From: Parcubacteria group bacterium LiPW_15
Lineage (GTDB): Bacteria; Patescibacteriota; Minisyncoccia; UBA6257; 2-01-FULL-56-20
Direction: 5' to 3'
DNA length: 64,000 nt
Assembly: GCA_007375645.1 (NCBI GenBank)
Contig: VMER01000001.1
Location: 209,211-273,210, forward strand
This document shows, in pieces, positions 2,016 through 62,343 of the stretch. Within the stretch, counting starts at the first letter, position 1; each line of letters opens with the position of its first letter. The position numbers were made by a program, and so were the translations under genes. Under the pieces are notes generated by a model, which ran no database searches, had not been told where the DNA came from, and saw only the letters and a program-made list of their open reading frames with translations.

Positions 2016-3743
2016 TTACGGACGAACGTTACGATCGAGATTCGAAGGTATCTTCGGATCTTCTTTCAAGAAAGTCGTTATCTGGTCGGAAGCGGCCGAG
2101 ATGCCCCTGTCAACGAATACATCCTTGGCGGAAAGCTCCGTCGCGCCGAGCAAGACCACTTCTTTGCCCACCTGGAGATTGGATGGAGTATATTCTATCT
2201 GAAACACCGCCTCAAATGCCGGAGTCACAATTCCCTTGGTGGCCGGAACACTACCCAAATTCCAGGTTATAACGCCGCTTTGCGCGTCATAGGTCGGCTT
2301 GGTATCCGCGTTGCTTTTTACCTGGCCCGTGAAATTCACGCCCGGGATAACCGTGGCTTTGATAACCGTGTCGGCTATATCCGTAGTGTAGTTGGTTACC
2401 TTCCAATGAACCGTGTATTGGGTCTTTTGATTGGCTTTAGGCGGATATGGGCCCTTATTCAAAATGCCGGAAGCTGAATCATAAAAATATCCGGTTGCCT
2501 TCACATCCGTTTGGCCCGCAAGCTTGGTCTCGGTTTTGGAAATGGTGACTGTTTTCTGCGCGGCGACTCCCGGAGGAACCGTCGGAGATTCGAGGGAAAG
2601 ATTGAGCTTCACCGAAAAATTCTTGTCGCCCAACCGGCGGATAGTGAAGGCATTTTTGAGCCTTACGCGGAATGAGATAGAACGCTCTTCGCCGGGATTC
2701 AAAACCGCCAGGTCTCCGACATTCTGCTGGGTCCAGGTAAGGACGTTGGTTATGGAATTGAAAACAGCGCTCGCACTAAGCGTGGAAAAATCATACATCT
2801 CTCCCACCATTCCGGCGGTAAGTTTAAGATTGGAAAGCGGAACCGGAGAATTGTTTTTATACTTCATCTCATAATTGATCTCATCACCGGCACGGGCCAC
2901 ATAGGAATTTGGGTCGGAACCATTGACCAAAACGGACAGCGAAAGCGGAGACGGCGAAATCGCGATATCCGCAGTCTGATTGTCCATCGCGTAGGTCTGG
3001 CCCATATAGTCGGAAGAGGCGGAGGCGGCGAACTGATAACGCGCCAGATCCGCGCCAACGATGTTTCCGTTTACGGTTACACTGTCGGTCTGGCCTTTAG
3101 CGAGCATTGGGAAGATCCACTCCTGATTATTTTTCCGCGCCTCTTCCTTATCCGATTTAACAAAATTGAAAACCGGCGGATAACTCAGTTTAAGCGTGAT
3201 GCTTTTCACGTCTTCGCCGGTGTTGTTCTGCAGTTTTACCTGAGTATCAAAATTTTCGCCGCTATTGATGCTTTGAGGAACGACAACCGTTAAAGATACG
3301 GCCGGAAGGCCCAGGCCCAGATCGAAAGTTTTGGTCGCTTCAAACTGCACATCCGGATTATTCGCGAGATTATATCGCAGTTTTGCCGTCACTTCTTTGA
3401 AACTCTGCGCGCCGCTTAAGGCCACAAGATTTAAGGTTTCCGGAGTAACGCTTCCCGGGCCTACATCTCCGATAGGTTTTTCAAAAACTCTTTGGTCGGC
3501 AGGCTTGCCCAAAAAAGCTATTTCCGGCGGCAAAACAACCAGGAACTTGGCATTTTTTAGAACCTGGTCAGAGGAGTTGGCATAGGAGATCGAAAGCGCG
3601 AACGGCTTGCCGATAAAGACGTCTCCCGGCTTCGCGAAATCAAGACTCACGTTCGGAGCCTTGGGTTCCAAAAAATAATAGATCGCGTAACCAACCGCTC
3701 CCAGCAAAACTAAAACTAATAATGTAATACCAAATTTGCGCAT
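2016..3743 (-). CDS. Membrane-anchored secreted hypothetical protein with repeated beta-rich domains
   Basis: 575 aa; N-terminal signal anchor MRKFGITLLVLVLLGAVGYAIYY; Ser/Thr/Asn/Val-rich beta-sandwich-like repeats; backbone GC. Confidence 0.6.
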   Translation of the reverse strand: MRKFGITLLVLVLLGAVGYAIYYFLEPKAPNVSLDFAKPGDVFIGKPFALSISYANSSDQVLKNAKFLVVLPPEIAFLGKPADQRVFEKPIGDVGPGSVTPETLNLVALSGAQSFKEVTAKLRYNLANNPDVQFEATKTFDLGLGLPAVSLTVVVPQSINSGENFDTQVKLQNNTGEDVKSITLKLSYPPVFNFVKSDKEEARKNNQEWIFPMLAKGQTDSVTVNGNIVGADLARYQFAASASSDYMGQTYAMDNQTADIAISPSPLSLSVLVNGSDPNSYVARAGDEINYEMKYKNNSPVPLSNLKLTAGMVGEMYDFSTLSASAVFNSITNVLTWTQQNVGDLAVLNPGEERSISFRVRLKNAFTIRRLGDKNFSVKLNLSLESPTVPPGVAAQKTVTISKTETKLAGQTDVKATGYFYDSASGILNKGPYPPKANQKTQYTVHWKVTNYTTDIADTVIKATVIPGVNFTGQVKSNADTKPTYDAQSGVITWNLGSVPATKGIVTPAFEAVFQIEYTPSNLQVGKEVVLLGATELSAKDVFVDRGISAASDQITTFLKEDPKIPSNLDRNVRP

Positions 3744-4532: not shown

Positions 4533-5027
4533 TCATCGCTGTCGAGGCGCACGACCCCGCATGCCCATGCCGGGTACGGCGTCTTCCTTGGAATGCTGGG
4601 GGTGCCGCTGTCCGCAGTCGATGCAGACAGGATCCATGAAGTAGACCTTCCAGCCCACGCCGATGGCGAGCTGGCCCAGTCCTCTGACCTTGAACACCGC
4701 GCGCATCTCGGTCAGGAGGAAGGCGTCCACGTCCTTGATCTTTTCGGCCAGGTCGGCAGCCTGGGCCACCCTCTCCTTGTCCGCCGGAGAAAGACCCCCG
4801 AGCAACCTGGAGACCATCTCCATCGTCGTGAGCTTGGACCCCTTCTCCTTGAGCTCAGCGTCCCAACGGTGACGCAGAGCCACGAGCTTCCGAAGGTTCT
4901 CCGGAAGGATGCCGAAGAAGTCGAGCTTCTGGTCCGGGATCGAGAGGCTCCGTTCCGCGGCGGCGATCTCCTCGAGGGTGACGGTCTCGGCCTCCGCGCC
5001 GAGAATGGTCGTGTACTTGAAGTCCAT
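4533..5027 (-). CDS. Hypothetical protein (high-GC cassette gene 1 of 3)
   Basis: 164 aa ORF with balanced composition; high GC; downstream hairpin plus T-run terminator at about 4395-4430. Confidence 0.5.
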   Translation of the reverse strand: MDFKYTTILGAEAETVTLEEIAAAERSLSIPDQKLDFFGILPENLRKLVALRHRWDAELKEKGSKLTTMEMVSRLLGGLSPADKERVAQAADLAEKIKDVDAFLLTEMRAVFKVRGLGQLAIGVGWKVYFMDPVCIDCGQRHPQHSKEDAVPGMGMRGRAPRQR

Positions 5028-9456: not shown

Positions 9457-10692
9457 TTACGTTGGCTTTACTGCGGATGCGTCCATGAGCGCTCCGGTCG
9501 CTCGTTCGATCCTGAGCGAGAGGAGCTGGCCGATGAGGCTGCCGGCCGCGCTGCCGACGATATAGGGAATCGCCTTCTCGGGAGTGATGGACCCGATGAC
9601 CAGCTGATGCATGGTGAGGAACCACACCCCATTCGAAAAGACCGAGGCCCAAGCAAGGTACTGCTGATTGTTCCGTTGACCGGCACGGCTCTTCAAGGTG
9701 AAGCTCAGCGCCTGCCAAGCCGAGAAGAACAGAAGCACCGCTCCGCCGGCGTATCCGATCCACGGATTCACTCCGAAGAACACGGTCTGCGGCACCAAGA
9801 GAACGCCGAGTAGAACGAGCTGGATCTTGGGCCAGGAGATGCTCCCCGTCTTTTCGCGCTCGGCTTCCTCGCTCTTCGTGAAGACGTGAATATCGAACCT
9901 GGCCTTGATGCGCTCCGCCATCTTTTGCGCCAGATTGGCGCCGATCAAAGAGCCGATGACGCTTCCGGTGGTCGTGGGCAGGAACATCGCCCAGTCCATC
10001 TTGAACTTGACGAGGATCGCGAGCTTTGCGAAGTCCGCGCCAAGATTCAAAACCACGGCGAAGAAATGGAACCAGTAGCTGTCGGCGCTTCGCGCAACCC
10101 GAAGGATCGCGAACGTGAAATTGCCGAAGATGGTGAGCGCCATGATGCTCACGAGAACCCAGGCATTGAGAGTCAGCGTGGTTTGCTCTTTCCCCGGCAG
10201 GAGAACCGTGTACCCGTTCAAGGAATAGATCTGTGAGGTAAGCAGCGCGAGGAGTACCGCAACCGTCGGCCAAAGCTTCAGAAGCTGAGGCCTTCCCTTC
10301 GCGCCTTCGGGGCTCAGACCCAACGCGGATTCAATCTTGATCGAAATGGTATTGCCGTGCAGGGTCCCCAGGATGGTCGCGAACACGTAGGGCGCGAGAA
10401 GCGCAGTGGGAAGATCGCTCTTTACGAGAAGGCGAAGCGACCAGAAGAAAGCGAAGTTAGCCGCAACCGCCGCCAAGAGATGGTAGGCGTTGCTGTTGCG
10501 ATTCGCGGACCTGCTCTGCAGGCTGTAGGTGGTGTTCTGCACGTATGCGAGAACCATCACCAAGGCGAGCGTTATGCCCGGGGCCGCGGAAAATGTCCCG
10601 CCCCAGAAAAAGAGCAGCTGGAGAACGATGATCGCTCCGATGATGCGCAAAGGATTCGTGTTCCAGAGTCGAAGCCAGAAGGATCGTTGCAT
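9457..10692 (-). CDS. Polytopic membrane protein with internally duplicated multi-TM domain (high GC)
   Basis: 411 aa; two homologous halves each ending ...GS(V/A)(I/A)GSLIG..L...R; about 10 TM helices; second gene of a minus-strand high-GC operon; a terminator hairpin lies at about 9405-9435, between its 3' end and mnmA. Confidence 0.6.
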   Translation of the reverse strand: MQRSFWLRLWNTNPLRIIGAIIVLQLLFFWGGTFSAAPGITLALVMVLAYVQNTTYSLQSRSANRNSNAYHLLAAVAANFAFFWSLRLLVKSDLPTALLAPYVFATILGTLHGNTISIKIESALGLSPEGAKGRPQLLKLWPTVAVLLALLTSQIYSLNGYTVLLPGKEQTTLTLNAWVLVSIMALTIFGNFTFAILRVARSADSYWFHFFAVVLNLGADFAKLAILVKFKMDWAMFLPTTTGSVIGSLIGANLAQKMAERIKARFDIHVFTKSEEAEREKTGSISWPKIQLVLLGVLLVPQTVFFGVNPWIGYAGGAVLLFFSAWQALSFTLKSRAGQRNNQQYLAWASVFSNGVWFLTMHQLVIGSITPEKAIPYIVGSAAGSLIGQLLSLRIERATGALMDASAVKPT

Positions 10693-10800: not shown

Positions 10801-13596
10801 TCAGATGGGTTCGGGAAGGAACTTGTTCCAGTCGAAGTGTCTGGGCTTCGCGAACCAATCGCGGAGGTAGTCGTGCGGAAGCATCCGCATGAGGATCGGA
10901 CCGGCATCCGGCCCATCCGCAGGGAAGGACACGAAGCAGACTCCAGTGTTGTTCGGAGGGAATCCGCCAGTCGAGCCGTAGAGATCGGTGTGCACTCCGG
11001 CAGCGCAGATGGCATAAACTCCCTTCGAAGTCTCCACCAGGCAGTAGAAGTGCTTATCCCCTACGATGGTAACGACGAAGAACTTCATGAGCCCGTAAGT
11101 GTCGTCACCGCGGACATAGTCGCTCTTCACGAACGCAGCCAGGAGATCCGACCAGCTCGAAAGCTTGGGCGGAGAACCGAGGAAGCGAAGACCCCACTCG
11201 TACCTTCCGGGCGCCTTGATGGTGCCCAGGCCGAAGGTTTCGCTGCCGAATCGCGGGGCGCAAACGGCTTTCTCGAGGAAAGCCTCCTTGCCTCGCCAAA
11301 GCGGCGATGCCAGCAGTCTGGCCCGAAGATGCCTTGCGGGATACTCGCCTTCCAGATCCGCGCCATCCAACGTGTGGATGCGATGATTTCCGTTCGGGAA
11401 GTTCAGCACGCCCACATCGCGGGTGTCGGAGATCTTCTTGTTGATCTCGCTGACACCGCGGATGGTAAGACGAGACTTTTCGAAGCGCCGGAGAACCGCG
11501 CTGTAGAAATCCACGTTCGGGTCGATGTGCCGGTCGTAGACCTGCATCATCTGATGGAACGGAAAGTGATCGCCGCGAAGATGGTGCTGACTGATGCTGA
11601 TCCGGTTGACCTCTTCGGTCAGCCTGAGAACCGCACCCATGTCGCCTCGCTCCGCTGCGCGCTGGATGTCAGCGGTGATTCCCTGGAGCCAAGCCTCGAT
11701 ACGGATGAGCGGCATGACTTCAGGGTCCGGACGGTAAGTGGGATTGAACCACAGATTGCCGTCGGTCGCATCGTCCAACTCCGCCACCATGTGAACGGGC
11801 ATGTCGCTAGCGGTAAAGAGACCTCCACGACGCATGAGCTCGATTGCAGCCTCGTTGACACCGAGATGCATGCGCTGTTTGGGGTCCCAGATGAACCGTT
11901 TCGCCGAACCGCCGAAGTGGTTGTCGGTGTTGACGTAGACGTTGTAGTACTTCGTCTTGGGGTAAGGGAACGCGAAGTTCGTGCCAAGCACCGCTTCTAC
12001 CTTGCTCAAACTCTTGATGGGCAAGGAATCGACGCTCAGAATGCCGTTCGACAGACTGATGAAAAGCGCGCCCGGTTTGAACTGCGGATTGAAGATCGCC
12101 TTGGAGATGGGATGCATCTTCCTGGTCGAGTCGCGCAACGAATCCGTAAGGAAAACGTCGTCGACACAGATCGGCGCCACGTGAACGAACTTCGTCACCG
12201 GCATCCCATCCTTGGAATCCTCCCGACCGACAAGCCGGTGATTCAAGGCATAGGGATGACAGATGATCGTAAGGTCGGCCAGCGTGTCGTTGAAGACTTC
12301 GCTGCCGTACTTGTCGCCGAAATCGGCCAGGAGCTCGTCAGAGACCGCGTCCCTGCTCGGAACGTGAAGCTTGATGCTCTTGTCATGGAGCTTGAGATAG
12401 ACGTTGCCCTGGCTGATGACCTTGCAGTTCGGGATCGCTTTCTCGAACATGCCGACCACCATGGCTCGCAGACGCAGCCGCGTGAGTTCGACCAAACGAT
12501 CGGCAACGTTGGTGAGGATGATGCGCGCTCTCATCTCGGAGAGACGCTTGACCTCCAGCTCCCACTTGTTGGTGGCCGCAAGCCCGCGACGGTGCTTCAT
12601 GGCAGCCGCGAGCTGGCCCTTGGCCATGGAAAGCTCCGCCTCGACTCGTCCCTGCTTTTGGATGGTGAGGTAGCGGCACTCGCTTTGCGCCGCCTCCGCG
12701 ATGATTTCCTCCTCCCGATATCCGAACGCGACGTAGATCGGGCCGGGAAATTCCGGAGCTCCATCCGGTCGAGTGGCGATCTTCTGCCATCCATCCATGA
12801 CTTCGCCGAATTTCTCGGCAATGGTTTGGAAGATGAGCTCGCCAGGGGGCTGGTCGCGCAAGACGCGCTTGACCTCCTCACGATAGTACCTCGGGAACCG
12901 CGCGGGATTGATGCGGATTCCGGACACCGCCGCCCTGTAGACCTTGTTGGTCCAAACGGTCTTCTTGGTGTTCATGTCGATGGTGTTCGTGAGGATGACC
13001 GCATCGGCTCCACGGAGCCTGGCCCCGATCAGAGCCCGGCGAACCGGGTTGTCGGCGATGTTGCGATCGTACTTCAGTCCGATCAGCGCGCCGTTGATGA
13101 GCGCGATTCGCGCGTTGGCACCGCCGGGCAGAACAAAGGGCTCCTGAGGTGTGATCTTCGGAAATTCGAAGCCCTCGGCGCCGGCGGGAAGATCTTCCAT
13201 GCTCAGACGCCCAACGCCAGCGACGAACTTCGTCGTGATACTGGCGTTTGTCCGCCCGGTCAAAGACTTCACCTTGTCCTTCAGAAGCTTGGACGGGATG
13301 TAGGGGTAAAAGTCCTTGTGAAAACGCTCGATGGGAACGTTGTGCCGAACGGCTTTCCTCAGATCCTCGAGCACCTTGTGAGTCCAGAGGTGTTCGCGAA
13401 CCCTGCGGGCGAATTGGCGCATGTCCAGCCGATAGGAGTTGCCGGCAAGCTGCTCGGCAAACTCCTTACTGATGGCACCGTAGATCTCGGTCACGCCGTT
13501 CTTCTTCAGAAGGAAGCCTTCACGGATCAATTCATGAACTCTCGCAGAGAGTCCGGGAATCTTCCAGGCGTCTTTTCGTTTCGCTTTGGTAGCCAT
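10801..13596 (-). CDS. Large hypothetical protein (931 aa, high GC), possible phosphoesterase/nuclease-like motifs
   Basis: Protein-like composition on the minus strand versus low-complexity Arg/Asp antisense ORF on plus; GNH-like and GD-x-H motifs but no confident family; first gene of an operon with the 9457..10692 membrane protein. Confidence 0.6.
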   Translation of the reverse strand: MATKAKRKDAWKIPGLSARVHELIREGFLLKKNGVTEIYGAISKEFAEQLAGNSYRLDMRQFARRVREHLWTHKVLEDLRKAVRHNVPIERFHKDFYPYIPSKLLKDKVKSLTGRTNASITTKFVAGVGRLSMEDLPAGAEGFEFPKITPQEPFVLPGGANARIALINGALIGLKYDRNIADNPVRRALIGARLRGADAVILTNTIDMNTKKTVWTNKVYRAAVSGIRINPARFPRYYREEVKRVLRDQPPGELIFQTIAEKFGEVMDGWQKIATRPDGAPEFPGPIYVAFGYREEEIIAEAAQSECRYLTIQKQGRVEAELSMAKGQLAAAMKHRRGLAATNKWELEVKRLSEMRARIILTNVADRLVELTRLRLRAMVVGMFEKAIPNCKVISQGNVYLKLHDKSIKLHVPSRDAVSDELLADFGDKYGSEVFNDTLADLTIICHPYALNHRLVGREDSKDGMPVTKFVHVAPICVDDVFLTDSLRDSTRKMHPISKAIFNPQFKPGALFISLSNGILSVDSLPIKSLSKVEAVLGTNFAFPYPKTKYYNVYVNTDNHFGGSAKRFIWDPKQRMHLGVNEAAIELMRRGGLFTASDMPVHMVAELDDATDGNLWFNPTYRPDPEVMPLIRIEAWLQGITADIQRAAERGDMGAVLRLTEEVNRISISQHHLRGDHFPFHQMMQVYDRHIDPNVDFYSAVLRRFEKSRLTIRGVSEINKKISDTRDVGVLNFPNGNHRIHTLDGADLEGEYPARHLRARLLASPLWRGKEAFLEKAVCAPRFGSETFGLGTIKAPGRYEWGLRFLGSPPKLSSWSDLLAAFVKSDYVRGDDTYGLMKFFVVTIVGDKHFYCLVETSKGVYAICAAGVHTDLYGSTGGFPPNNTGVCFVSFPADGPDAGPILMRMLPHDYLRDWFAKPRHFDWNKFLPEPI

Positions 13597-30224: not shown

Positions 30225-32927
30225 ATGGAACTCCGCGCAGGAACGACGCTGGTCACAGCGTCCGATCTCGTGAGCATTCCGAACCAGTCTCCTCAATTCA
30301 GAGACTGGGCTTGGTATCAGCTAAACTTCGCCCCCGAGCACCTGGACGACATCGTTTCGGCCCTTCTTCAAAAGGATAAGGGCACGAATGTCCGGGAAGC
30401 CCTGGAATATCTGAATGACTTCCTCGGCGGACACCCCGCTACCGGCGAACGCCTGAACGCAAGCGACATCACCGGAGAGAATACCCAGAGCGCGTTGTTC
30501 AAAAAACTGCGCGTTCTGCTCGGCAAGGATTCCGGCGCGACTAACCCGGATGTTTATCGTTTTCTGGGACAAGTCGGCCATAAATTCATGCCGCTATTCC
30601 TCGGAAGTCAGCGGTTCCCAAGAACCGAATACAAGTTTGGCGGGCCGCTGGCCCAACGATCCCTGTTTCAGAAGCTGGTAGACGAGGAAGACGGACAAAA
30701 AATCCTCTTCCCGTTCCTTGCCGACCAACAGTTTGCCAAATCGGAAATCAAAGATCCGAACCGATCGCAACTGCGGCAGAGCTATGCTCTCTGGAAAAGG
30801 ATCGCGGAGAACGTCAAAGACCACAGCCTGACAGAACTGTACTCCAAACACGGACCAAAGCTCGACCGGCTGACCAGGATGTTGAAGCGAGAGTTTGCTC
30901 CCTATTCCTCGGAACTCGAGGCGCAAAGGGATGCAAAGTCCGAACTCGTGACTCTGAGCCTGATGAGCTGGGTGAGCGCCGTCGAACTCAAAGAACGGCA
31001 GCCCCGCATTTTCTTCACGGAGATACCGGTCCTCGACCGGCATCATCGGCTCGGAGCTTGGAGGATCGATGCCGCAGAAGTACGAACCATTGAAGGCAAA
31101 GCGCCGACGCCCAAACAAAGGGCTAAGCTCAGGGAACTCAGCCTCACTCGGTTCACTTCTGTTGGCCATCTGCTCCAATCGCTTATCTCCTTCTTTGGAG
31201 AAGAGCTGGAGCTCGGCATCTGGGACTGGAAGTTCGCGATTGGCGACGGCGCCCCAAAGCGCGTCATCGATCCGAGAACCATGGTTCAGGATGTTCTCGC
31301 GGAACACACGCGCCAGATACAGCGATATCTGATGCTCGGGAGCCTGGACTGCCACTTAACCGGGCGGCCCCGCGCGAAAACTCTCTGGCATGACGACTAT
31401 TTCTTGCGCGGAACTCTGGCATATTTCTTCCCGACGCATCGGCCGATACTCGAGCAAATAGTCATGACTCCGGAATTGCACAAACAGATCTTCGAAGAAG
31501 AAGTGTTGATGCGATTCGGGAGTGCGAAACAGCGCGCGAAGCTAAGAGAACTGACGAGCCAAGTAGTCGGCAACGTCTTCGCTCTCTGGAACGGAAACGG
31601 AAAGCCGAAGAACGGTTCCGCGCATAAGCCAACCCCGCAAGTATCGCTTTTTGAAGAGCCCTCCGACAAACCGCGTTCTGCTCTTCATTACGTTGAGCAG
31701 ATGCAAAAACCGATTTTCCTCGAAGGCTCGCACGGGCTTCTGGAGGTCGTGGGGCTCGGTGAGGGCGGACGCAAGCGTTACGAACTCCGCCTGGACACGA
31801 TGCTCAAACGGATCGAGGAAGGCGTGATCTCCGGACGAAATATCGGGCAGGGCTGGCTCATTTCCTGTCCGCATCCGGATCACGACGACTCTACGCCGTC
31901 TTGCGCGGTCTATCTCACCGGACACTTTCACTGCTTTGGATGCAAGAACTCCGGCAAGATCGCGGCTGGTTCAATTCCAAAAAATATTGAGCTTGTCCCC
32001 GATCTGCGGCAACAGCACGAGCGAATGCGCCAAGGCACAACGAATGCTCTGGTTCCGGAAAGACATCGCGAGGTCATGCGCACCGTTCAGGCCCATCTCT
32101 CCGCCAAGTTCAGAAACAGTCCGGCCGAACGATATCTTGCGCATGAGCGCCGTCTGGATCCGGAACTTGCCGCGTCTTTTGGCGCCGGATACGGCAGCAA
32201 CGAACTCATTTTGGATCTGCTCCAAGACGGCGTAAGCTACGAGGAGCTTATCCATTACGGTCTGGTGGGAATCTCACCAAAAATGAAACCCTCCAGCCTC
32301 TTGATTCGATCATTACTCCAGAAAGGCTATTCTTTAGAGAGCCTCGGCAGGGAGCTAAAAGTACCGGGCGGCAAAAACGTCTCGGGCCTCCCCTATCCTT
32401 CGCTCTCGAACCGGATAACCTTCCCACTCATGACCGAAAGCTGGGTAACCAGCGTGTACGGAAGGGCCATCTATGCTTGCGACAAGCAATTCTCGCATCG
32501 CAAGCTCACCATTAAGTACACGGGCGTTCCCCACGGCGCTTTCAATGTGGCCGCGCTTAACGCGCCCGGTAATGATCTCATCGTTACCGAAGGCGTGATG
32601 GACGCGCTCTCCCTGATCGAAGCCGGAGTGCCGAACACGCTCGCGCTCATCGGGGTTCAGAACACCGTAATCCTCGAAGCCCTGGAACGGTCGCGCAAGA
32701 AGCTTTGGATCGCGCTCGACATCGACGAAAATAAGTCGGGACAGAACGCGACCGCAAAGATAATCGAACGATTCAGGTCGCGCGGCGTGCCCGTGGGCGA
32801 CTTTACCGCCAAGTTCGCCGCAAGACTCACCGAACAGTACAAGGACTACAACGCCTGGTGGCAGGCATCCGGCCGTCATCTTTCTCTTAACGACCGGGCA
32901 GCTCTTCTCGCTCTTTCCGAAGCGTGA
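30225..32927 (+). CDS. DnaG-like primase-family protein: CHC2 zinc finger plus TOPRIM fused to an unknown 500-aa N-terminal domain (high-GC cassette)
   Basis: CPHPDHDDSTPSCAVYLTGHFHCFGCKNSG is a DnaG-type zinc ribbon; VTEGVMDALSL...ALDIDENKSG is TOPRIM; AAGGAGG RBS; hairpin terminator at about 32930-32960. Confidence 0.72.
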   Translation: MELRAGTTLVTASDLVSIPNQSPQFRDWAWYQLNFAPEHLDDIVSALLQKDKGTNVREALEYLNDFLGGHPATGERLNASDITGENTQSALFKKLRVLLGKDSGATNPDVYRFLGQVGHKFMPLFLGSQRFPRTEYKFGGPLAQRSLFQKLVDEEDGQKILFPFLADQQFAKSEIKDPNRSQLRQSYALWKRIAENVKDHSLTELYSKHGPKLDRLTRMLKREFAPYSSELEAQRDAKSELVTLSLMSWVSAVELKERQPRIFFTEIPVLDRHHRLGAWRIDAAEVRTIEGKAPTPKQRAKLRELSLTRFTSVGHLLQSLISFFGEELELGIWDWKFAIGDGAPKRVIDPRTMVQDVLAEHTRQIQRYLMLGSLDCHLTGRPRAKTLWHDDYFLRGTLAYFFPTHRPILEQIVMTPELHKQIFEEEVLMRFGSAKQRAKLRELTSQVVGNVFALWNGNGKPKNGSAHKPTPQVSLFEEPSDKPRSALHYVEQMQKPIFLEGSHGLLEVVGLGEGGRKRYELRLDTMLKRIEEGVISGRNIGQGWLISCPHPDHDDSTPSCAVYLTGHFHCFGCKNSGKIAAGSIPKNIELVPDLRQQHERMRQGTTNALVPERHREVMRTVQAHLSAKFRNSPAERYLAHERRLDPELAASFGAGYGSNELILDLLQDGVSYEELIHYGLVGISPKMKPSSLLIRSLLQKGYSLESLGRELKVPGGKNVSGLPYPSLSNRITFPLMTESWVTSVYGRAIYACDKQFSHRKLTIKYTGVPHGAFNVAALNAPGNDLIVTEGVMDALSLIEAGVPNTLALIGVQNTVILEALERSRKKLWIALDIDENKSGQNATAKIIERFRSRGVPVGDFTAKFAARLTEQYKDYNAWWQASGRHLSLNDRAALLALSEA

Positions 32928-32973: not shown

Positions 32974-35511
32974 TTACTTTCCCTGTTTAAGCACGTGGCG
33001 AAGATACTGAGCCGTAAAACTCTTTGGATTTCTCGCTACTTCTTCCGGCGTTCCCTGGGCGACAATTTCTCCTCCCCTTTCTCCGCCCTCGGGCCCGAGA
33101 TCGATAACCCAGTCCGCGCTTTTAATGACATCCAAATTATGTTCAATGACTACCACGGTGTTCCCCCGGTCCACCAAGCGCTGTAAAACAACGAGAAGCT
33201 GCTCGATGTCCGCAAAGTGAAGTCCGGTGGTCGGCTCATCCAAAAGATAAAGTGTTTTGCGGGTATCACGCTTGCCGAGTTCCGCTGCGAGCTTAACGCG
33301 TTGCGCCTCTCCGCCCGAAAGCGTGGTCGCGGATTGTCCGAGCTCCAGATAACCCAAGCCGACTTCTTCCAGAATACTCAATCGGTCTTTAAGCCACGGA
33401 ATGTCGTCGAAAAACTTGTGCGCCTCTTCGATGGTCATCTTAAGAATGTCGTAAATATTCTTTCCTTTGTATTCCACCTCCAATGTTTCCCTATCAAACC
33501 GCTTTCCCTTACAAATATCGCACTCCACGTAGACCGTGGGCAGAAAATGCATTTCGATAGCTAAGGTCCCATGGCCTTCGCAGTTTTCACAGCGTCCGCC
33601 GGGCACGTTGAAGCTGAACCGGCCCGGTTTATAACCTCGAACTCTCGCATCTTCGGTAGTCGCGAAAAGATCCCGGATAAAAGTCCAAGCGCCGACGTAA
33701 GTGGCCGGATTGGACCGCGGAGTGCGGCCTATCGCTCCCTGGTCGATATTAATGACCCTGTTCATATATTCCAATCCCAGAATGGATTTTACCGCTCCGG
33801 TCTTGATGCCTTCTCCAAGCTCATGGAATTTGCGGGCGATGTTTCTATGAAGCACGTCATAAACCAACGTGGATTTTCCGGAACCGGAAACACCGGTCAC
33901 GGCCGTAAACCTCCCGAGCGGAATATCCACATTTATATTTTTTAAATTATTGGCCGAAGCTCCGCGTATCTTTATCGCTTCTTTGTCCTTGGAAACTTTT
34001 CTTCGGATTTCGGGAATTTCTATCTCCCGCTTCCCGCGCAAAAAATCCAAGGTGAGCGAGTTTTGAGTCTTGTCTTTAAGCAGTTCCGGCATCGGTCCTT
34101 GGGCAATGACCCTGCCGCCGTGCACGCCCGCCCCCGGCCCGAAGTCCACCAAATAATCCGCGGAACGGATAGTATCCTCATCATGCTCCACTACGATCAC
34201 GGTATTTCCCAGATCCCGCAGTTTCTCGAGTGTTTGAATGAGTTTCGCGTTATCTCTCTGGTGCAAACCAATAGTCGGCTCATCCAATATATAGAGAGTT
34301 CCAACCAGCCTGGAACCTATCTGGGATGCCAGGCGAATACGCTGAGCCTCCCCGCCCGAAAGCGTACCGGCCTTGCGGCCCAAAGTCAGATAATCCAAAC
34401 CCACATCCAAAAGAAATTTCAGTCTGGCTTTGATCTCCCGAAGAGGCGCCTCGGAAACTTCTTTAAACCTTTCGTTGCGATTCGAGAAGCTCATGTCGCC
34501 GAAGAATTTGTTGGCTTCTTCGATGGACATATTTACCACTGAATTTATATTTTTGTCTTTGACCAAAACGCTCAAAGCTTCTTTTTTTAAACGCTTACCT
34601 TCGCAAACGTCGCAAAGGTCTTCGGACCAAAGTTCTTTGACGCCCAAACCGTGGCAGGTCTCACAAGCGCCGTAAGGGCTGTTGAAAGAAAATAACCGCG
34701 GTTCGATCTCCGGGAACGAAAAACCGTCGTTGGGGCAGGTGAATTGCGCGGAAAGCGAAACCTCTTTATCGGTTAAGACAGTCAAAACGTTCTTACCGTA
34801 TTTCAAGGCGGATTCCACCGCTTCCGCGAGGCGCAAGCGGTTGTCTTTATCTTTAAAATCCATCCCGCCCGGAATTCTGTCGACTACAAGTTCAATGGTG
34901 TGCTGTTTGTAGCGCGCGAGCTCGATCCGCTCATGAAGCGAATGCATTTTGCCATCCACGCGGACCTCTCTGAAGCCGGCGTTTAAAAGATCGTAAAGCG
35001 TTTGATAATATTCTCCCTTTCTTCCGCGGATCACAGGCGCCAAGATCAAAAGATTATTTTTCTTCTTGTCCTCTTTGGAAATTTGAATGACTGCGTCCAC
35101 GATCTCTTCATTGGTCATCTTGCGAATTTCCGTTCCGCACTCCGGACAATGAGGAGTTCCCGCGCGCGCGAAAAGTACGCGCAGATAATCATAAATTTCG
35201 GTGATGGTCGCGACCGTGGAACGAGGATTCGAAGAATGGCTTTTCTGGTCAATAGAAATCGCCGGAGACAATCCTTCTATCTCATCCACGTCCGGTTTCT
35301 CGAATCTTCCCAAAAATTGTCTGGCGTAAGCAGAAAGGGATTCTATATATCGCCTCTGTCCTTCGGCAAAAATGGTATCAAAAGCCAAACTGGATTTTCC
35401 CGAGCCGGATAGTCCCGTCAAAACGGTCATCTTATCCCGCGGAATTTCCAGGTTTATGTTTTTGAGATTGTGCTCTCTGGCTCCTCTTATTTTGATTTTG
35501 TCTTGTGCCAT
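32974..35511 (-). CDS. uvrA: Excinuclease ABC subunit A (UvrA, compact 845-aa form)
   Basis: Two ABC ATPase modules ([18 protein letters not shown]) and zinc-finger Cys motifs. Confidence 0.95.
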
Positions 35512-35617
35512 TTTGTTTATAAATCCATAAAGTCCCCCGCTGGCGGGGTTCTTAGGGGGTCACAAGCGAGAGTCTAGCATATGTAATAAAAATAGAAAGC
35601 CGCCACGGAACTAAAAA

Positions 35618-35645
35618 CCCGGACTAGTCCACTGGACTGTCCGGG
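35618..35645. repeat. Palindromic hairpin element CCCGGACTAGTCCACTGGACTGTCCGGG (same family as 26973)
   Basis: Seen directly. Confidence 0.45.
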
Positions 35646-35791
35646 CCTTTAATGAGCCCCGAGCCTCTATACCAATATTGCTATTGCGTGACGTTCACCT
35701 TACGGATCTGCCTTCTGTGCTCGGAGCTCACCTACAACATAACTCCCCCATTCGGGCTTAAAAGACCCATTTATGCACAGCGCTAAAATGT

Positions 35792-35820
35792 TTGACATTA
35801 TGACTAAAACATTATACTAT
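35792..35820 (+). promoter_or_regulatory. Near-consensus sigma70 promoter TTGACA-17-TACTAT upstream of the collagen-like gene
   Basis: Sequence match; about 170 nt upstream of the 35993 start. Confidence 0.5.
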
Positions 35821-35992
35821 CTGTGTGCTAGAAAAAAGGGCGGATTTAGGTCAACCCTTATTGCACCTCGAAAAGAAAGCGAAAGGAGAGATGGAATGGT
35901 GAGTTGAGAATCTAACTTCAACCGCCGCTCTAAGTCCCTATCCGATCGTCTCAAACCCCGATCTGAAACGAATTCTACAAAAGGAGAAAAAA

Positions 35993-37642
35993 GTGAACAT
36001 CATCAAGAAGTTCACGGTTCTCGTGGCTCTCGCACTCCTCGTCTGCACCGGGACGGCCTACGCGGCCGATCCGCCGCGTCATCCCGTTCCCGTCGGTGAA
36101 CCCGAAGACGCCACAACCGTCATCGGGCACCAAGGGCGCACGGAGCTGCCCTTTCCGAACCCCGCCAACAACACCCTGTACAAGGCGCTGATCGGTGGGC
36201 CGTGTTGGCTCATCGACACCAGACTGGACTCGAAGTTCGACCCGCCGTACGGAAACAAGTCGGGTCAGCTCGGCGACTTCGTTTCCGGCGAGTCGAGGGC
36301 GTACCGCTTCGGCGGTCACCTGCTCGATCTGCCGCTCACGAACCCGTGCAACGACCTGATTCCGAGTTCCGGCGTCGTCGCCCTCAACCTGGAAGTCCAC
36401 ATCTACACGAACGGCCTCGTACCAGGCGGAGTGTTCTTCGAGAACACCCGCTTCGTCCCCGAACTGTGGTCGGCAACGGCGCAGGTCGGGCAGACAGCCT
36501 TCCTGATCTACGAGAAGGACAAGCTCAGCGACTTCATGCCCGGCTTGGTCCAGATCGGCCCCGCTTCGATATACGAACTCGGCGGCCAGTCCTTCCGGCT
36601 GAAGAACGTCGGGAACAGCATCGACGTCGCCGTGAAGATCAATGGCTACTTCACCGAGGACAAGACCGTCGGCAAGGGTGGTCCGGCCGGCAAGGACGGC
36701 GTGTCCTGTTCCGTCGTGCAGACCAACGACCTGTCCTATAAGATGACCTGCGGTGACAAGATCGTCGCCGAATGGTGGTCCGGCAAGGACGGCAAGCCCG
36801 GCCTCAGCGGCCCGCAGGGAGAACCCGGACCCGTTGGCCCGCAGGGGAAACCCGGACTGAACGGTGGCCCGGGACCTCAGGGCCCCATCGGACCCACGGG
36901 ACAGACCGGAGCTACCGGACCGCAGGGACCCATCGGCCCCACGGGAGCGACCGGACAGACCGGACCCATCGGACCGATCGGACCCACCGGTGCCACGGGA
37001 GCAGTCGGACCCATCGGACCGCAGGGACCCATCGGACCCACAGGGCAAACCGGAGCTACCGGACCCATCGGACCGATCGGACCCACCGGTGCCACGGGAG
37101 CAGTCGGACCCATCGGCCCCATCGGACCCACGGGAGCAACCGGACAGACTGGCCCCGCTGGCCCGACTGGCGCTACCGGACCCATCGGCCCCATCGGTGC
37201 CACCGGCCTGACCGGACCGCAGGGCCCTCAGGGAAATCCAGGACCACAGGGGCAGAAGGGTGACACCGGCAATACCGGTCCAGCGGGACCCATCGGCCTC
37301 ACTGGCCCGGGTGGCCCCGCTGGCCCAATCGGACCCATCGGCCCCGCGGGTCCGCAGGGACCCCCAGGCGTCTGCGCCTGCCCGATCTCGTCCGGCACCA
37401 TCGTCTTGAACTGCCCCAGCGCGCCGGAACCGGAAATCAACGGCCGCGAACCGAACTGCGTAACCTGCGCGAAGACGGTGAGCAACGCCGACATCAAGTC
37501 CTGGAGCAACGTCATCTGCTCCTACTCCGGCGGCCCTCTCGCGAGTGACGCGATTCCCTGTCGCGTATACAACGTCCAGAACGGCTCCTTCAAGGTGGAA
37601 GGAATGGCCGGACAGACCATCACCTGGATGGCCAAGAACTGA
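35993..37642 (+). CDS. Secreted collagen-like protein: signal peptide, about 240-aa globular domain, about 190 aa of G-X-Y triplets, Cys-rich C-terminal domain
   Basis: GTG start after AAGGAG; signal [16 protein letters not shown]; about 60 contiguous Gly-X-Y triplets ([16 protein letters not shown]...); 8 Cys in the C-terminal 90 aa; high GC. Confidence 0.8.
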
Positions 37643-37672
37643 TCTCCTTTCGTCGACAGTCATCGCTCTTTC

Positions 37673-37700
37673 GCGGGCCCTTCGGGGCCCGCCTTTTTTT
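37673..37700 (+). terminator. Intrinsic terminator GCGGGCCCTTCGGGGCCCGC plus T7
   Basis: Seen directly. Confidence 0.6.
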
Positions 37701-37793
37701 GACAAAATTATTTAAAACAGGCATCATTTTGCGAGCGAACGCAACTTGATTCCTGAACGGGCAATATCGCCCACAAACAGAAGGAGAGAAAAA

Positions 37794-38573
37794 GTGAACA
37801 TCATCCGGAGACTCGCGATCCTCATCGCTCTCGCACTCCTCGTCATCGCCGGAACCGGCTACGCAGAGGATCCGACCGCCAGCCCGAGCACGTACTTCAA
37901 CCTCCTGCCCCGGCAGAATCCGTTCGAAGTGCCGGCCCAGAACACGAAACTCAGCCTCGAGCTTCCGTTCGGAGATCGGCGCGAGGTCGTGTACGTTCCG
38001 ATGAAGGCGTGCGTCCTGACCGGTCCCAGTTCCAACTGGTTCGTCGACAAGGAAACCAGGGTCTACTTCGCGGGCAACTGCGGAGGAGTTCCCGAAACCG
38101 CCGAGCATCTGTTCATCCGGGTCACTGCCATCGGCGTGAACATCCAGGACTACGGCTGGGACTTTCCGGGTGCCGGTTTCTACACGACGACACCGAACAG
38201 CGCGTCCACCGAGACAGGCACCCTCTACGGCGGCTGGGTCCAGGCAATCGTTTTCGTGCAGAGAGCCGGACAAGTCGAAACCGGAGCAGCCATCGTGGAG
38301 CTCAAGCTGTTTCAGGCTTCGGGTTTCGCCATGCGCAAAGGATTCGAGCTCGAGCTCAAGTACGGCGAAGCCTACGCGATCGTGGAAGTCGTGGGCTACA
38401 CGTTGCCCAAGACAGCGAAATCGACCGGCCTCTCATGGAAAGGCGTCAGGCTCCCCCACGTGAAGTACACGGTGAACGACCTCGTGACGGACGAGAAGGG
38501 CCTCAGGGTCTGCGTCGGCGCGAACGAAAACGGCTGCACCATCTGGGAAACGATGGTGCCGATGAAATACTAG
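37794..38573 (+). CDS. Secreted hypothetical protein, paralogous leader to the collagen-like gene (no collagen region)
   Basis: GTG start after GAAGGAGAG; N-terminus VNIIRRLAILIALALLVIAGTGYAEDP versus [27 protein letters not shown] in the upstream gene. Confidence 0.62.
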   Translation: MNIIRRLAILIALALLVIAGTGYAEDPTASPSTYFNLLPRQNPFEVPAQNTKLSLELPFGDRREVVYVPMKACVLTGPSSNWFVDKETRVYFAGNCGGVPETAEHLFIRVTAIGVNIQDYGWDFPGAGFYTTTPNSASTETGTLYGGWVQAIVFVQRAGQVETGAAIVELKLFQASGFAMRKGFELELKYGEAYAIVEVVGYTLPKTAKSTGLSWKGVRLPHVKYTVNDLVTDEKGLRVCVGANENGCTIWETMVPMKY

Positions 38574-38593
38574 CTCTTTCGAACGAAACTCGA

Positions 38594-38623
38594 AGGGCCC
38601 CTCGCGGGGGGCCCTCTTTTTTT
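38594..38623. terminator. Bidirectional intrinsic terminator GGGCCCCTCGCGGGGGGCCC plus T-run
   Basis: Seen directly; overlaps the stop of 38622..39326. Confidence 0.55.
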
Positions 38624-39326
38624 ACCTCAAATATTTATCCCAATATCCGTAAAGCGCGCTTGTGGCTTTTAAATCGCCAACGTTATACCTCGCAATATCA
38701 ATATATTTCTTTTCTTTAAATAATCGACTAACGTCATCCCCCGTCACTCCATCCTCCTTTGGGCTCTTTATTCCGAAAGCCCTGCTCCACAAATGAAGTC
38801 CGCCCTTCCTGCGCGTTGCTCCGTAAAAAGTCAGCTGGTCAAAGAGATCAATATGCCGAACTCCCCTTTGCTGATACAGATATCTTCCTTCCATCAGATC
38901 CACGCTCGGCCGGATCTTATATATCGCCGACCGCACGGCCAAAAACGGCGCGTCAAACATTCGCCCGTTGAAAGTTATAAACTCATCGTATTCTTTCGCT
39001 CCATCCCAAAAATTTTTGAGCATTTCTTTTTCGCTCATCGGCCGAAATCTTATTCCGTCCTCGGTAAATTCTTTAGCCTCCACATCCGGCGATTGAAAAT
39101 ATACTGCGCCCTGCTCTTTGTCCGGATCATAAACCCCGATGACCACTATTTCTCCGGTCAAAGGAGAAAAGCCCATACCGCCCTTCAGTTCTTCAAGTGC
39201 TGTTTCATATTCTTCGGTGCTGTCCGAATCCTTTTTTATCCAGCGCGTCAAAACATCCTGGGTCGCGTGATCCAGGGCGTTAAAATCTTCTCCGACCGTC
39301 TCGATGTCAAAAACAAGTCTCGGCAT
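38622..39326 (-). CDS. RNase H-like 3'-5' exonuclease (DnaQ/PolB-exo-like, DEDD)
   Basis: LVFDIETVG (Exo I motif DxE), downstream YNVGD..H motifs; 234 aa. Confidence 0.68.
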   Translation of the reverse strand: MPRLVFDIETVGEDFNALDHATQDVLTRWIKKDSDSTEEYETALEELKGGMGFSPLTGEIVVIGVYDPDKEQGAVYFQSPDVEAKEFTEDGIRFRPMSEKEMLKNFWDGAKEYDEFITFNGRMFDAPFLAVRSAIYKIRPSVDLMEGRYLYQQRGVRHIDLFDQLTFYGATRRKGGLHLWSRAFGIKSPKEDGVTGDDVSRLFKEKKYIDIARYNVGDLKATSALYGYWDKYLR

Positions 39327-41568: not shown

Positions 41569-41773
41569 CATAAAAAGATTACTGCGAAATACAACATTTA
41601 ATATCGGGCATTTGGAACCAAAACACAACAGTTTACTTGAATTTAGGCCTATTTACCTTGATTTTCCACCCCATTGACAATCCTAGGATATATGTGGTAT
41701 AATGTCCGAGCAAAGTTAAGTCCATCGAAAACGGCCGAAAGGCCATAAAATCACAAAGAAAGAAGGAAAGAAA

Positions 41774-42268
41774 GTGAAAGCGAACGAGATCCAGATCCGC
41801 ATCCCCGCCCTCCCGAAGCTCTCCGAACAGGATATCTGTTCTCGCTGGGGATTCACGAACGTCCTGAAGGACGATTCTCCGGAAGGAGAGGTGATCCTCA
41901 CCCTCACGACCGTCCTCCGGGACGGCGAGAACTCCCTCTCCGACAATGAGTACGAGACCCGCATCGAGAAGGTCGAGGGAAAGCTCGGACTCAGCCAGGC
42001 CCTCTGGCTCGTCGAACATCCGCTTCCGGCGTGTGGGTTCGAAGACGATGACCGCTGGATGCTCGAGCTCTTCATCTCCCCCGACCGGTACGCGACGAAG
42101 AAGATGCACATCTACTTCCCGGCAACGGTCGCGAGGAGCCTGATCAGCAACGGCAACCCGGAAGTTCCGTCTCTGTGCATGGATAGACACAACATGCTGC
42201 TGAGCCTGAGCTGGGATGTGTACGATCTCGATCCCAGCGATCCCATCGCCATCGCCAAGCCGGCCTGA
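41774..42268 (+). CDS. Hypothetical acidic protein (164 aa, high-GC cassette)
   Basis: GTG start after GAAGGAAAG; the plus strand has protein-like composition whereas the overlapping minus ORF is Arg/Ser-rich low complexity. Confidence 0.5.
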   Translation: MKANEIQIRIPALPKLSEQDICSRWGFTNVLKDDSPEGEVILTLTTVLRDGENSLSDNEYETRIEKVEGKLGLSQALWLVEHPLPACGFEDDDRWMLELFISPDRYATKKMHIYFPATVARSLISNGNPEVPSLCMDRHNMLLSLSWDVYDLDPSDPIAIAKPA

Positions 42269-42360
42269 CCCATCTTTCTCCCTCAGCACCTTCGCCCCGT
42301 ATGAAGCAAAAACTTCGCGGGGCGTCACCAAATCGTGAAAGCTCGAAAGAAGGAGAACCA

Positions 42361-42516
42361 TATGCTCGAATTCCTGTACGTTTACGCGACGATCGGGATT
42401 GCCGCCTTTGGCGGATTCTTGGTCAAGGAGAAGCAGAACAGGACGCTCGGAGTCATCTGCCTCAGCGCCGCCAGCGCCCTGGGCGTGGTGCTCGTGGTCG
42501 CCCTCGTACAGTAGTT
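42361..42516 (+). CDS. Small hydrophobic peptide (51 aa, predicted 2 TM)
   Basis: AAGGAG RBS 7 nt upstream of ATG; MLEFLYVYATIGIAAFGGFLVKEKQNRTLGVICLSAASALGVVLVVALVQ; flanked by 23-bp direct repeats; strong terminator downstream (42540-42585). Confidence 0.38.
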
Positions 42517-61779: not shown

Positions 61780-62343
61780 ATGAACACGCTGAAGATGAGC
61801 AGGGAGGCAAAGAGCTTCGTGGCCATCCTCCTCGGAGTGCTCGGCATCGGATTGACCATCCTCTGGATGGTCGAGACGAACCAGAAGATGGTCATCGAAG
61901 CTCGACAGAGCTCCGCCGTCCAGGATCTCGATCCCGGCAACTTCGTTCACGACGAGCACGAGCTCGTCATCCGCTACGGCAGCCTGAACGGCGTGCCCGT
62001 GGAGATGGTTCGGGACTACACGCACGGAGGACTCGTCCTTCGCGCTGTCCTCCCGGACAAGGATGACCCGCTCGCCAGCCCCGCCCTCGACGCTCTGAAA
62101 GCGGAAGTCATCCGCCTCTGCTCCTCGAAGGAGCCTGTTCCCCTCGGGGACACGGGGTACACCTTCCTGTTCACCGGGGTATGTGACCCCGAGTGGGCAC
62201 CCTACACCACGATCGAGTCGGCGAGAAACACGAGGAACATCCGCTTCATCCGATGGGTCGAACCGATCATCGGAAACGCCATCCGGGGTGGAGGCTCATG
62301 CGATACGAGCTACCGCCCCGCCGGCTACTCCGTGAAAAGGTAA
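61780..62343 (+). CDS. Hypothetical membrane-anchored protein (187 aa, high GC)
   Basis: GGAAGGAG RBS; N-terminal TM then soluble domain with 3 Cys. Confidence 0.55.
   Translation: MNTLKMSREAKSFVAILLGVLGIGLTILWMVETNQKMVIEARQSSAVQDLDPGNFVHDEHELVIRYGSLNGVPVEMVRDYTHGGLVLRAVLPDKDDPLASPALDALKAEVIRLCSSKEPVPLGDTGYTFLFTGVCDPEWAPYTTIESARNTRNIRFIRWVEPIIGNAIRGGGSCDTSYRPAGYSVKR

Follow-up and report, generated by a model that had tools for sequence, protein, structure and literature searches.

A collagen-like protein gene and a stalkless paralog of its head in a divergent locus of a Parcubacteria bacterium

Bacterial collagen-like proteins typically have Gly-X-Y repeats that are rich in proline at X and in threonine at Y, and in the streptococcal collagen-like proteins (Scl) the head is the variable part (PMC8968730). 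We describe such a protein, encoded by gene A, together with the collagen-free product of its neighbour, gene B, in 64,000 nucleotides of the tiny genome of Parcubacteria group bacterium LiPW_15 (assembly GCA_007375645.1, contig VMER01000001.1, positions 209,211 to 273,210); this whole stretch is called the window, and its numbering is used throughout. In this organism's group, the Candidate Phyla Radiation (CPR) or Patescibacteria, the attachment to and recognition of partners are largely unknown and surface proteins are mostly unannotated. Our literature search on collagen-like proteins in CPR, Parcubacteria or Patescibacteria found nothing relevant.

Genes A (35993-37642, plus strand, stop codon included; GTG start, 549 aa) and B (37794-38573, plus strand; GTG start, 259 aa) lie on the same strand and fill the interval between uvrA (32974-35511, minus strand), which is divergent from A, and a gene for an RNase H/PolB-exo-like exonuclease (38622-39326, minus strand), which is convergent with B and has queA beyond it. 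On balance, and by no wide measure, we hold it probable that this interval is a hypervariable cell-surface island of a Parcubacteria clade, in which two Sec-exported paralogs serve as a trimeric stalked fibre (A) and a stalkless head (B). The locus offers a strongly promoted, hypervariable candidate surface fibre and a definable new head-domain family; otherwise it is an ordinary example of a widespread class of bacterial proteins.

By architecture A belongs with the bacterial collagen-like surface proteins (Scl, Bcl and Lcl), outside each named family. Like streptococcal Scl1 and Scl2, it has a signal peptide, a variable N-terminal globular head and an uninterrupted Gly-X-Y stalk without hydroxyproline machinery, and would probably form a homotrimeric 'lollipop'. 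Unlike them, it has no LPXTG motif, transmembrane segment or charged tail, and its scores against the NCBIfam Scl models, which derive from the repeat, stay far below the cut-offs (NF038330, 87.6 bits against 400; NF038329, 99.7 against 325). The Scl head is helical, whereas the head of A is modelled as a beta-sandwich. The Scl trimer is nucleated by the N-terminal domain; in A the Cys-rich C-terminal domain is the better candidate for that role.

BclA of the Bacillus exosporium and the tip fibres of L-ENA resemble A in joining a globular domain to a collagen stalk, and make up a hair-like surface layer. The C-terminal globular domain of BclA is important for trimer formation and has a C1q/TNF-like fold, whereas A has no C1q or other Pfam match outside its collagen region, and a profile of its C-terminal domain finds only chance matches in the PDB. 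BclA also lacks a Cys knot and a second, stalkless paralog, and the Parcubacteria organism considered here does not form spores. The L-ENA tip fibrillae are described as collagen-like (PMC11362473). The Legionella protein Lcl is likewise a collagen-like adhesin; it is secreted, attaches non-covalently and binds glycans through its terminal globular domain (PMC11162425). Against the NCBIfam model of Lcl (NF046116) A reaches 99.3 bits with a cut-off of 500; the two proteins have unrelated terminal domains and carry the binding domain at opposite ends. All of these Scl and Lcl models match A within residues 222-473 only. What is new in the locus is the head family, the pairing of stalked and stalkless paralogs, a CxC junction, a recurring Cys-loop interruption of the collagen region and the hypervariable CPR island itself.

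Gene structure and expression signals

The plus-strand frame of A is a real gene, with a GGAG (35983-35986) six nt before its GTG. A competing view is that the antisense open reading frame (ORF; 35975-37705, 576 aa) is the true gene and the collagen frame an artefact of a GC-rich repeat. It draws on a short-read assembly of the same organism (L001), in which the contig breaks within the collagen repeat and the public gene caller took the antisense frame. Against it, the plus frame bears the signature of a real GC-rich gene in its globular parts (GC content at third codon positions, GC3, of 0.78-0.86 and at second positions, GC2, of 0.43-0.54, while antisense GC3 is about 0.6) and carries a ribosome-binding site (RBS), a leader and a terminator. 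Its product is identical to GenBank TSC60392.1 ('hypothetical protein LiPW15_270', Parcubacteria group bacterium LiPW_15, from a contig of 481,644 bp), and 15 relatives keep the non-repetitive head in this frame. The antisense frame, which the original prediction had also considered improbable, is effectively excluded as the gene. Because contigs tend to end within the repeat and, in this genome, GC3-rich genes are at times called on the wrong strand, such proteins are under-represented in protein databases.

The description of A as a secreted bacterial collagen-like protein is borne out by its signal-peptide features and a Pfam Collagen match. Residues 1-24 (35993..36064) read, by rule, as the signal peptide proposed earlier, with a KK n-region, an 11-residue hydropathy of 3.05 and an AYA-A cleavage motif (cleavage after AYA). 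The head follows (36065..36670, residues 25-226, about 200 aa), a predicted beta-sandwich with the motifs PCxLxDTR, E-x-R-x-Y, NPC-x-x-x-IP and (I/V)-x-GY-x-x-x-D. After it come four Gly-X-Y triplets (residues 227-238) and a 25-aa insert with two Cys (residues 239-263; both within 36671..36781), which splits the collagen region. The original prediction had rightly recognized a globular domain here, but as a single unit of roughly 240 aa; it is made up of the 200-aa domain, the four-triplet mini-collagen and the insert. The insert's module, G-x-(D/N)-G-x-(S/T)-C...C...V-A-x-W-x-(S/N)-G, recurs in the head-family relatives P0010, P0011, P0017 and P0021, and several relatives hold one to three copies of it; it is absent from the A orthologs of the related loci L002 and L008.

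The stalk (36782..37375, residues 264-461) is an uninterrupted run, as first described, of 66 triplets rather than about 60. Proline takes 38 of the 66 X positions, and Y is mostly Thr (23), Ile (15) or Gln (9). At the DNA level it consists of imperfect tandem repeats of 9, 27, 36, 45 and 99 nt. Pfam Collagen (PF01391) passes its gathering threshold on A (92.9 bits against 27.2, E=1e-26), and no other Pfam family reaches E<=0.1, so that the head and the C-terminal domain remain without a match. In any frame of the window, a Gly-X-Y run of at least eight triplets occurs in this stalk only; the sole other run of at least six is a seven-triplet antisense run, also within gene A.

The C-terminal domain (37373..37642 with the stop codon, residues 461-549, 89 aa) begins GPPG-VCAC-P, its CxC motif abutting the last triplet. 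It is Cys-rich as claimed, with seven Cys from residue 461 on (12 in the whole protein) where eight had been counted. C1q, lectin and tail-fibre folds, which had been suggested for the globular parts, were not found: neither part matches Pfam, the C-terminal profile meets no related solved structure in the PDB, and matches to tail-fibre families of PHROGs are confined to residues 222-473. Mature A and B have no transmembrane segment (the maximum 19-residue hydropathy of mature A is 1.14) and no functional LPXTG; the LPxT-like strings in them, LPLTN in A and LPKTA in B, are internal.

Gene B begins with a signal peptide (residues 1-24) that has, like that of A, a cleavage motif of A-x-A type. 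A beta-sandwich spans residues 50-205 or so, a small beta domain makes up the C-terminal end (about 210-259) and, as previously noted, there is no collagen region. It matches nothing in Pfam, NCBIfam or PHROGs. Its tail carries the pattern W-x-G-x-W...Y-x-x-G-D-x-V...G-x-W, reminiscent of family 5/12 carbohydrate-binding modules (CBM5/12). Of five orthologous tails, two are recognized by Pfam CBM_5_12 (PF02839; best E=3.8e-4), but the copy in the window is not; no solved structure is significantly similar to it by sequence. AlphaFold2 models B, at a mean predicted local distance difference test (pLDDT) score of 66.5, as a beta-sandwich with a small C-terminal beta unit. Its orthologs are 40-53% identical to the B of the window.

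Profile comparison makes B a distant stalkless paralog of the A head. The alignment of A-family heads (16 sequences) and the B family are matched by hhalign with 97.8% probability (E=8.6e-13), and with 96.5% over 140 columns (E=8e-10) after removal of the signal peptides; an earlier run with three head sequences only had given 34%. The alignment superposes two conserved Cys, E-x-R-x-Y, C-x-(I/V)-P and a terminal (V/I)-x-GY strand, and the A-head HMM matches B orthologs directly (2e-5). BLASTP of A against B gives no significant match. The pair had been described as a duplicated secretion module with divergent passenger domains; the genes are indeed related, but the passengers are homologous as well, not unrelated.

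Each gene has a TTGACA-type promoter-like site of its own and a GC-rich hairpin followed by T7, in line with the consensus promoter and two strong terminators noted originally. The site of A, whose function is inferred, is of sigma-70 type (35792..35820, plus strand, TTGACA-17-TACTAT), and the matching place in the related locus L009 reads TTGACA-17-TATTAT. Upstream of B lies TTGACA-17-CATCAT (37699..37727, plus strand); TTGACA-17-TAGTAT precedes the B ortholog of L005. The terminator of A (37673..37700, plus strand) is GCGGGCCC-TTCG-GGGCCCGC, eight GC pairs and T7, and a nine-pair hairpin with T7 stands between the convergent B and exonuclease genes (38594..38615), at the right edge of the divergent island.

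Between promoter and GTG, A has a 5' leader of roughly 165 nt (35821..35992, plus strand) that includes the GGAG. A regulatory RNA in this leader was considered and rejected: Rfam gives a single chance-level match (ylbH, E=0.61), and the fold is not significantly stable (z=-1.65). The leader also holds a second RBS-like site, GAAAGGAGAG, followed by an in-frame ATG-GAA-TGG-TGA mini-ORF (35882-35902, plus strand). Its counterpart in L009 (about 3493-3580), GAAAGGAGAC-GTG, is open in frame to the start of the A ortholog. This second site may serve as an alternative start or belong to an upstream ORF, or it may be a remnant.

The near-identity of the two gene starts and signal peptides reported at the outset holds: an 86-nt direct repeat that spans the RBS tail, GTG and signal peptide (35988..36073 and 37789-37874, plus strand) is 78% identical between A and B, and B starts with GGAG, GTG and the leader MNIIRRLAILIALALLVIAGTGYA. 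Over the 300 nt that follow the repeat, identity is 56%. A 25-nt RBS/start pattern taken from B (no chance matches in 100 shuffles) matched B alone, and did not match the RBS of A even with three mismatches. Leader identity between A and B is 78% in this genome, 62% in L009 and 53% in L002, while orthologous leaders of different genomes are 60-71% (A) and 56-64% (B) identical. That the two leaders come so close in this genome only, and are closer to each other than to their orthologs, points to local gene conversion at the 5' ends of A and B.

The head family and the question of phage origin

Relatives of the A head were sought by an exhaustive HMMER (phmmer) search with residues 25-263 against 1.84 billion protein representatives (E<=1e-3). 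The family is rare and comprises 16 cluster representatives, A itself among them. Head and collagen run occur together in 12 of the 15 relatives, and of the other three, two are truncated fragments. All full-length members begin with a signal-peptide-like leader, and in most of those with collagen the last triplet is immediately followed by a Cys motif, of CxC type or other. Invariant or nearly invariant head columns are C47, C95, G194, Y195 and D199. The conserved Cys pair, E-x-R-x-Y and a terminal V-x-(V/I)-x-GY strand are found both in the A head and in B, and define a 'PCRLVDTR' beta-sandwich family. With 16 clusters, no Pfam model and no close solved structure, the head-domain family is new.

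From the 16-sequence alignment AlphaFold2 produces a confident, all-beta sandwich model of the A head (pLDDT 84.3, predicted template-modelling score 0.81). Structure comparison gives weak matches only, the best of them to sandwiches of jelly-roll or CBM type and to fibre or baseplate proteins of phages.

A word-indexed protein search with the A head alone or with a 12-sequence head alignment returned nothing, in an index that appears to be without these collagen proteins, so that this is not evidence of absence. A contig look-up with the exact sequence of A gave no record, and genome and metagenome scans with the head found the L002 organism only. IMG/VR scans with B and two head subgroups gave no relatives, and tblastn of two heads against 50,697 INPHARED phage records gave no match.

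These searches bear on the possibility that A and B are phage-derived, as a domesticated or remnant tail-fibre or receptor-binding module or as a prophage 'moron', with a role in phage adsorption or superinfection exclusion; we consider this rather unlikely. Tail-fibre families of PHROGs (6320, 8745, 5073 and 819) share with A a Gly-X-Y stalk that joins globular modules and match it with E down to 2e-43, and the best structural neighbours in BFVD include phage fibre and baseplate proteins. Those PHROG matches, however, are confined to residues 222-473, which is the collagen region and a short preceding segment. A also differs from tail fibres in its Sec leader: such leaders, carried by the full-length family members, are normally absent from virion fibres. 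Its context is chromosomal and housekeeping, with no phage genes beside A and B and with uvrA, the exonuclease gene, queA, tgt and truB in conserved order. The empty INPHARED and IMG/VR searches point the same way.

Some distant head relatives do lie on 65-73-kb low-GC contigs of short, one-directional ORFans, which would suit a phage source, but no hallmark virion gene occurs in the 16-17 kb read, and PHROG scans of 20 proteins from these contigs matched an exonuclease and a methyltransferase only. Contigs L010 (72.9 kb), L011 (64.6 kb) and L013, whose distant relatives combine head and collagen, have a GC content of 37-42% and carry DNA methyltransferase, exonuclease, Ro60/TROVE and Mor-like genes; they may derive from phages, or from mobile elements of another kind, that live in uncultured hosts.

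Synteny, divergence and proposed function

B orthologs, wherever their context was read, are convergent with the exonuclease gene and lie beside queA/tgt/truB, with uvrA on the other side. Reading these loci yielded A orthologs in L002/L006, L007, L008 and L009. They share the head, continue in at least 46-75 collagen triplets and end in a Cys-rich part. Named metagenome-assembled genomes with the locus are Candidatus Paceibacterota and a 'Saccharibacteria' bin. L008 (JAQUAD010000107.1) is a 3.2-kb contig at 1.5x coverage that was binned as Sideroxydans sp. and carries both orthologs; it is almost certainly mis-binned, because its exonuclease gene is 86.5% identical in DNA to that of the Parcubacteria window.

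The slot between the conserved flanks varies in content. It holds A and B in the window and in L008 and L009, whereas in L002 and L007 the gene for a secreted protein of 159-184 aa stands between A and B, and L004 and L005 have B alone. In L003 (509-3715) it has no collagen gene, and a polysaccharide deacetylase gene, a chitin-synthase-like glycosyltransferase (GT2) gene and two ORFs precede B; at least one of these two ORFs has a signal-peptide-like N-terminus. This hints that the slot gathers cell-envelope or glycan functions, which fits the CBM5/12-like tail of B.

Divergence is concentrated in the two genes. Between the window and other genomes, protein identity is 71-98% for the exonuclease, 88-93% for UvrA and 71-85% for QueA, but 51% for the A head and 43-53% for B; in L009 the exonuclease is 98% identical and B only 43%. 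DNA identity to L009 is 83-89% in the flanks and 69-70% over the first half of A and over the C-terminal part of A with the B leader, and none can be detected in the remainder of A or in the B body. At the shared terminator, from position 38587, identity is back at 88%.

Composition sets the two genes apart as well, so that the region is, as claimed originally, an island distinct in both composition and evolution. GC is 0.61-0.66 in A and B and 0.44-0.49 in the flanks, and GC3 is about 0.8 against about 0.5. In every genome examined, B orthologs are GC3-rich (0.67-0.88). Codon-usage (translational) selection was considered as the cause of the high GC3 and rejected, since the genes for ribosomal protein S2 and an EF-P-like protein, probably highly expressed housekeeping genes, have a GC3 of 0.5-0.6.

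Raised GC (0.61-0.72 against about 0.45-0.49 in the flanks) and GC3 and a nucleotide divergence with sharp boundaries could also suggest a recently inserted mobile cassette bounded by direct repeats, and a flanking repeat between 35512-35545 and 38631-38665 had in fact been proposed. That repeat does not survive comparison with chance: its score of 9 is matched by about 2% of random 35-mers of the window, and when the whole flanks are aligned with each other the top score is 13, where shuffles give 11.1 +/- 1.6. No inverted or other flanking repeat was found, and 35.5-38.6 kb contains no integrase or transposase ORF. Orthologs of both genes, moreover, stand at this syntenic position in genomes that differ from the window by up to 29% in the flanking proteins. 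A recent cassette is effectively excluded, and with it the view of the locus as a cassette with flanking repeats; a long-standing hot spot of replacement and diversification fits better.

How A and B might work can be proposed as follows. Each gene would be strongly promoted and separately terminated, and its product exported through the Sec pathway. Three A chains would be aligned by the Cys-rich C-terminal domain and stapled together through interchain disulfides of the CxC motif that follows the last triplet, and the 66 triplets would zip into a rigid triple helix of 198 residues, about 57 nm long at the collagen rise of 0.286 nm per residue. At its far end this helix would hold three variable jelly-roll heads, able to bind a ligand on another cell or surface. 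B would act nearer to home, on the cell's own envelope or glycan layer, through its small tail of glycan-binding type.

The suggested order has precedents, in that collagen usually folds from a C-terminal nucleus in the C-to-N direction and the cystine knots of animal collagens join all three chains covalently (PMC11923368). By analogy, animal collagens III and IX likewise have two close Cys at the C-terminal end of the triple helix, as in GPPG-VCAC of A, although in A these are CxC rather than CC and lead into a domain of about 85 aa with five more Cys. The cystine-knot-like CxC staple, if it forms, and the recurring Cys-loop interruption may interest collagen engineers.

Polarity of conservation favours this interpretation as a surface fibre with variable heads: the C-terminal domain of A is 68% identical between orthologs (window and L008), against 51% for the head and 43% for B, so that a variable head, in which the Cys pair is conserved, goes with a conserved tail. 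Extreme divergence at a fixed locus is expected of a molecule under selection by partners or phages, and for an episymbiotic CPR bacterium host-cell attachment is the obvious candidate function.

Several points weigh against it. The C-terminal domain has an odd number of Cys, seven, and how they would pair is not obvious. A has no anchor motif and could simply be released. The window's own B tail is the copy that CBM_5_12 fails to match, and the GC3 of 0.67-0.88 across all lineages is not accounted for by codon selection. Fold searches with the head found no significant neighbour (best E=8e-4, TM<=0.44), so it is position and variability alone that argue for a ligand-binding head.

A rival view is that A and B recognize no specific ligand and form a passive structural hair or nap layer, which would keep other surfaces at a distance or limit permeability much as the BclA nap does on Bacillus exosporia. 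An abundant structural protein would be in keeping with the head-stalk-base architecture and with the strong promoters, and A yielded no match to a binding-domain family. Against this view, divergence to 43-51% identity beside neighbours that stay at 85-98% is not what one expects of a purely structural protein, and B orthologs bear a tail of carbohydrate-binding type. We regard a passive layer as a minor though serious possibility, and retain the recognition-capable surface island as our preferred interpretation.

A bolder extension, speculative and unlikely, is that the A/B island is the clade's partner-recognition determinant, docking the episymbiont onto its host by hypervariable jelly-roll heads on the long collagen stalk, and that the head family is traded with the clade's phages or mobile elements, which use it to find cells. 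If true, this would account for the foreign GC and for a fixed locus with allele-like replacement, and also for the relatives on ORFan-rich low-GC contigs.

Other features around the island

At the left edge of the interval, on the minus strand, lies the core of a conserved structured small RNA (35646..35738; covariance model R1), within a likely transcription unit of about 35600-35775 that consists of a -10-like CTGTGCATAAAT, the core and an intrinsic terminator with a U-tract. The -10-like box is conserved, and the core has a 14-bp closing helix, in which two pairs are compensatory, and two GNRA-capped hairpins. R1 finds one copy in each of six loci (98-115 bits), always beside the start of uvrA; they represent about five distinct genomes, as L004 and L005 share the same gene sequences. 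Outside the window the copies are at 3243-3335 in L009, 7372-7464 in L002, 2674-2766 in L005, 74-166 in L004 and 296-388 in L003. Every related locus that covers the region has the RNA at this position, including those without gene A, and the RNA belongs to the uvrA side rather than to the collagen gene.

Pairing is kept in 97.5% of cells, against 26-43% with the partners slid, and two pairs change on both sides. Covariation within these five close sequences is weak (64 of 500 shuffles reach the observed score). The terminator covaries: it differs in sequence between loci and keeps its pairing. No Rfam family matches the small RNA at E<=1. An identity as signal recognition particle (SRP) RNA, considered in view of the domain IV motif, was rejected, as no Rfam SRP model matches at E<=1 and the AGCA loop is absent. 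The RNA could be a stand-alone small RNA or a riboswitch-like attenuator ahead of uvrA.

The 5' leader of uvrA (35520-35600, minus strand) contains a block that is conserved upstream of the uvrA ATG in four loci and reads ...GGGGGTCACAAGCGAGAGTCTAGCATATG... in the window. TCACAAG of the window is TTACAAG in L009 and L002, with more differences downstream. A CCCCG-N4-CGGGG hairpin in the block faces competition from a CCCCC run, and the block may regulate uvrA, as a leader or as an operator.

Directly past the 3' end of uvrA, a GC-richer gene of 900 aa (30225-32927, plus strand) encodes a primase-like protein that combines a DnaG-type zinc ribbon with Toprim domains. L002 lacks this gene at the matching place, and it may be part of another inserted element.

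Several other ORFan-type genes of the window have a GC3 of 0.75-0.84, where housekeeping genes of this genome are at about 0.5: 4533-5027, 9457-10692 and 10801-13596 on the minus strand, and 41774-42268 and 61780-62343 on the plus strand. They seem to form a class of genes with foreign composition that extends through the genome, and in at least one case the public gene call took the antisense frame (41633-42361, minus strand, instead of 41774-42268, plus strand).

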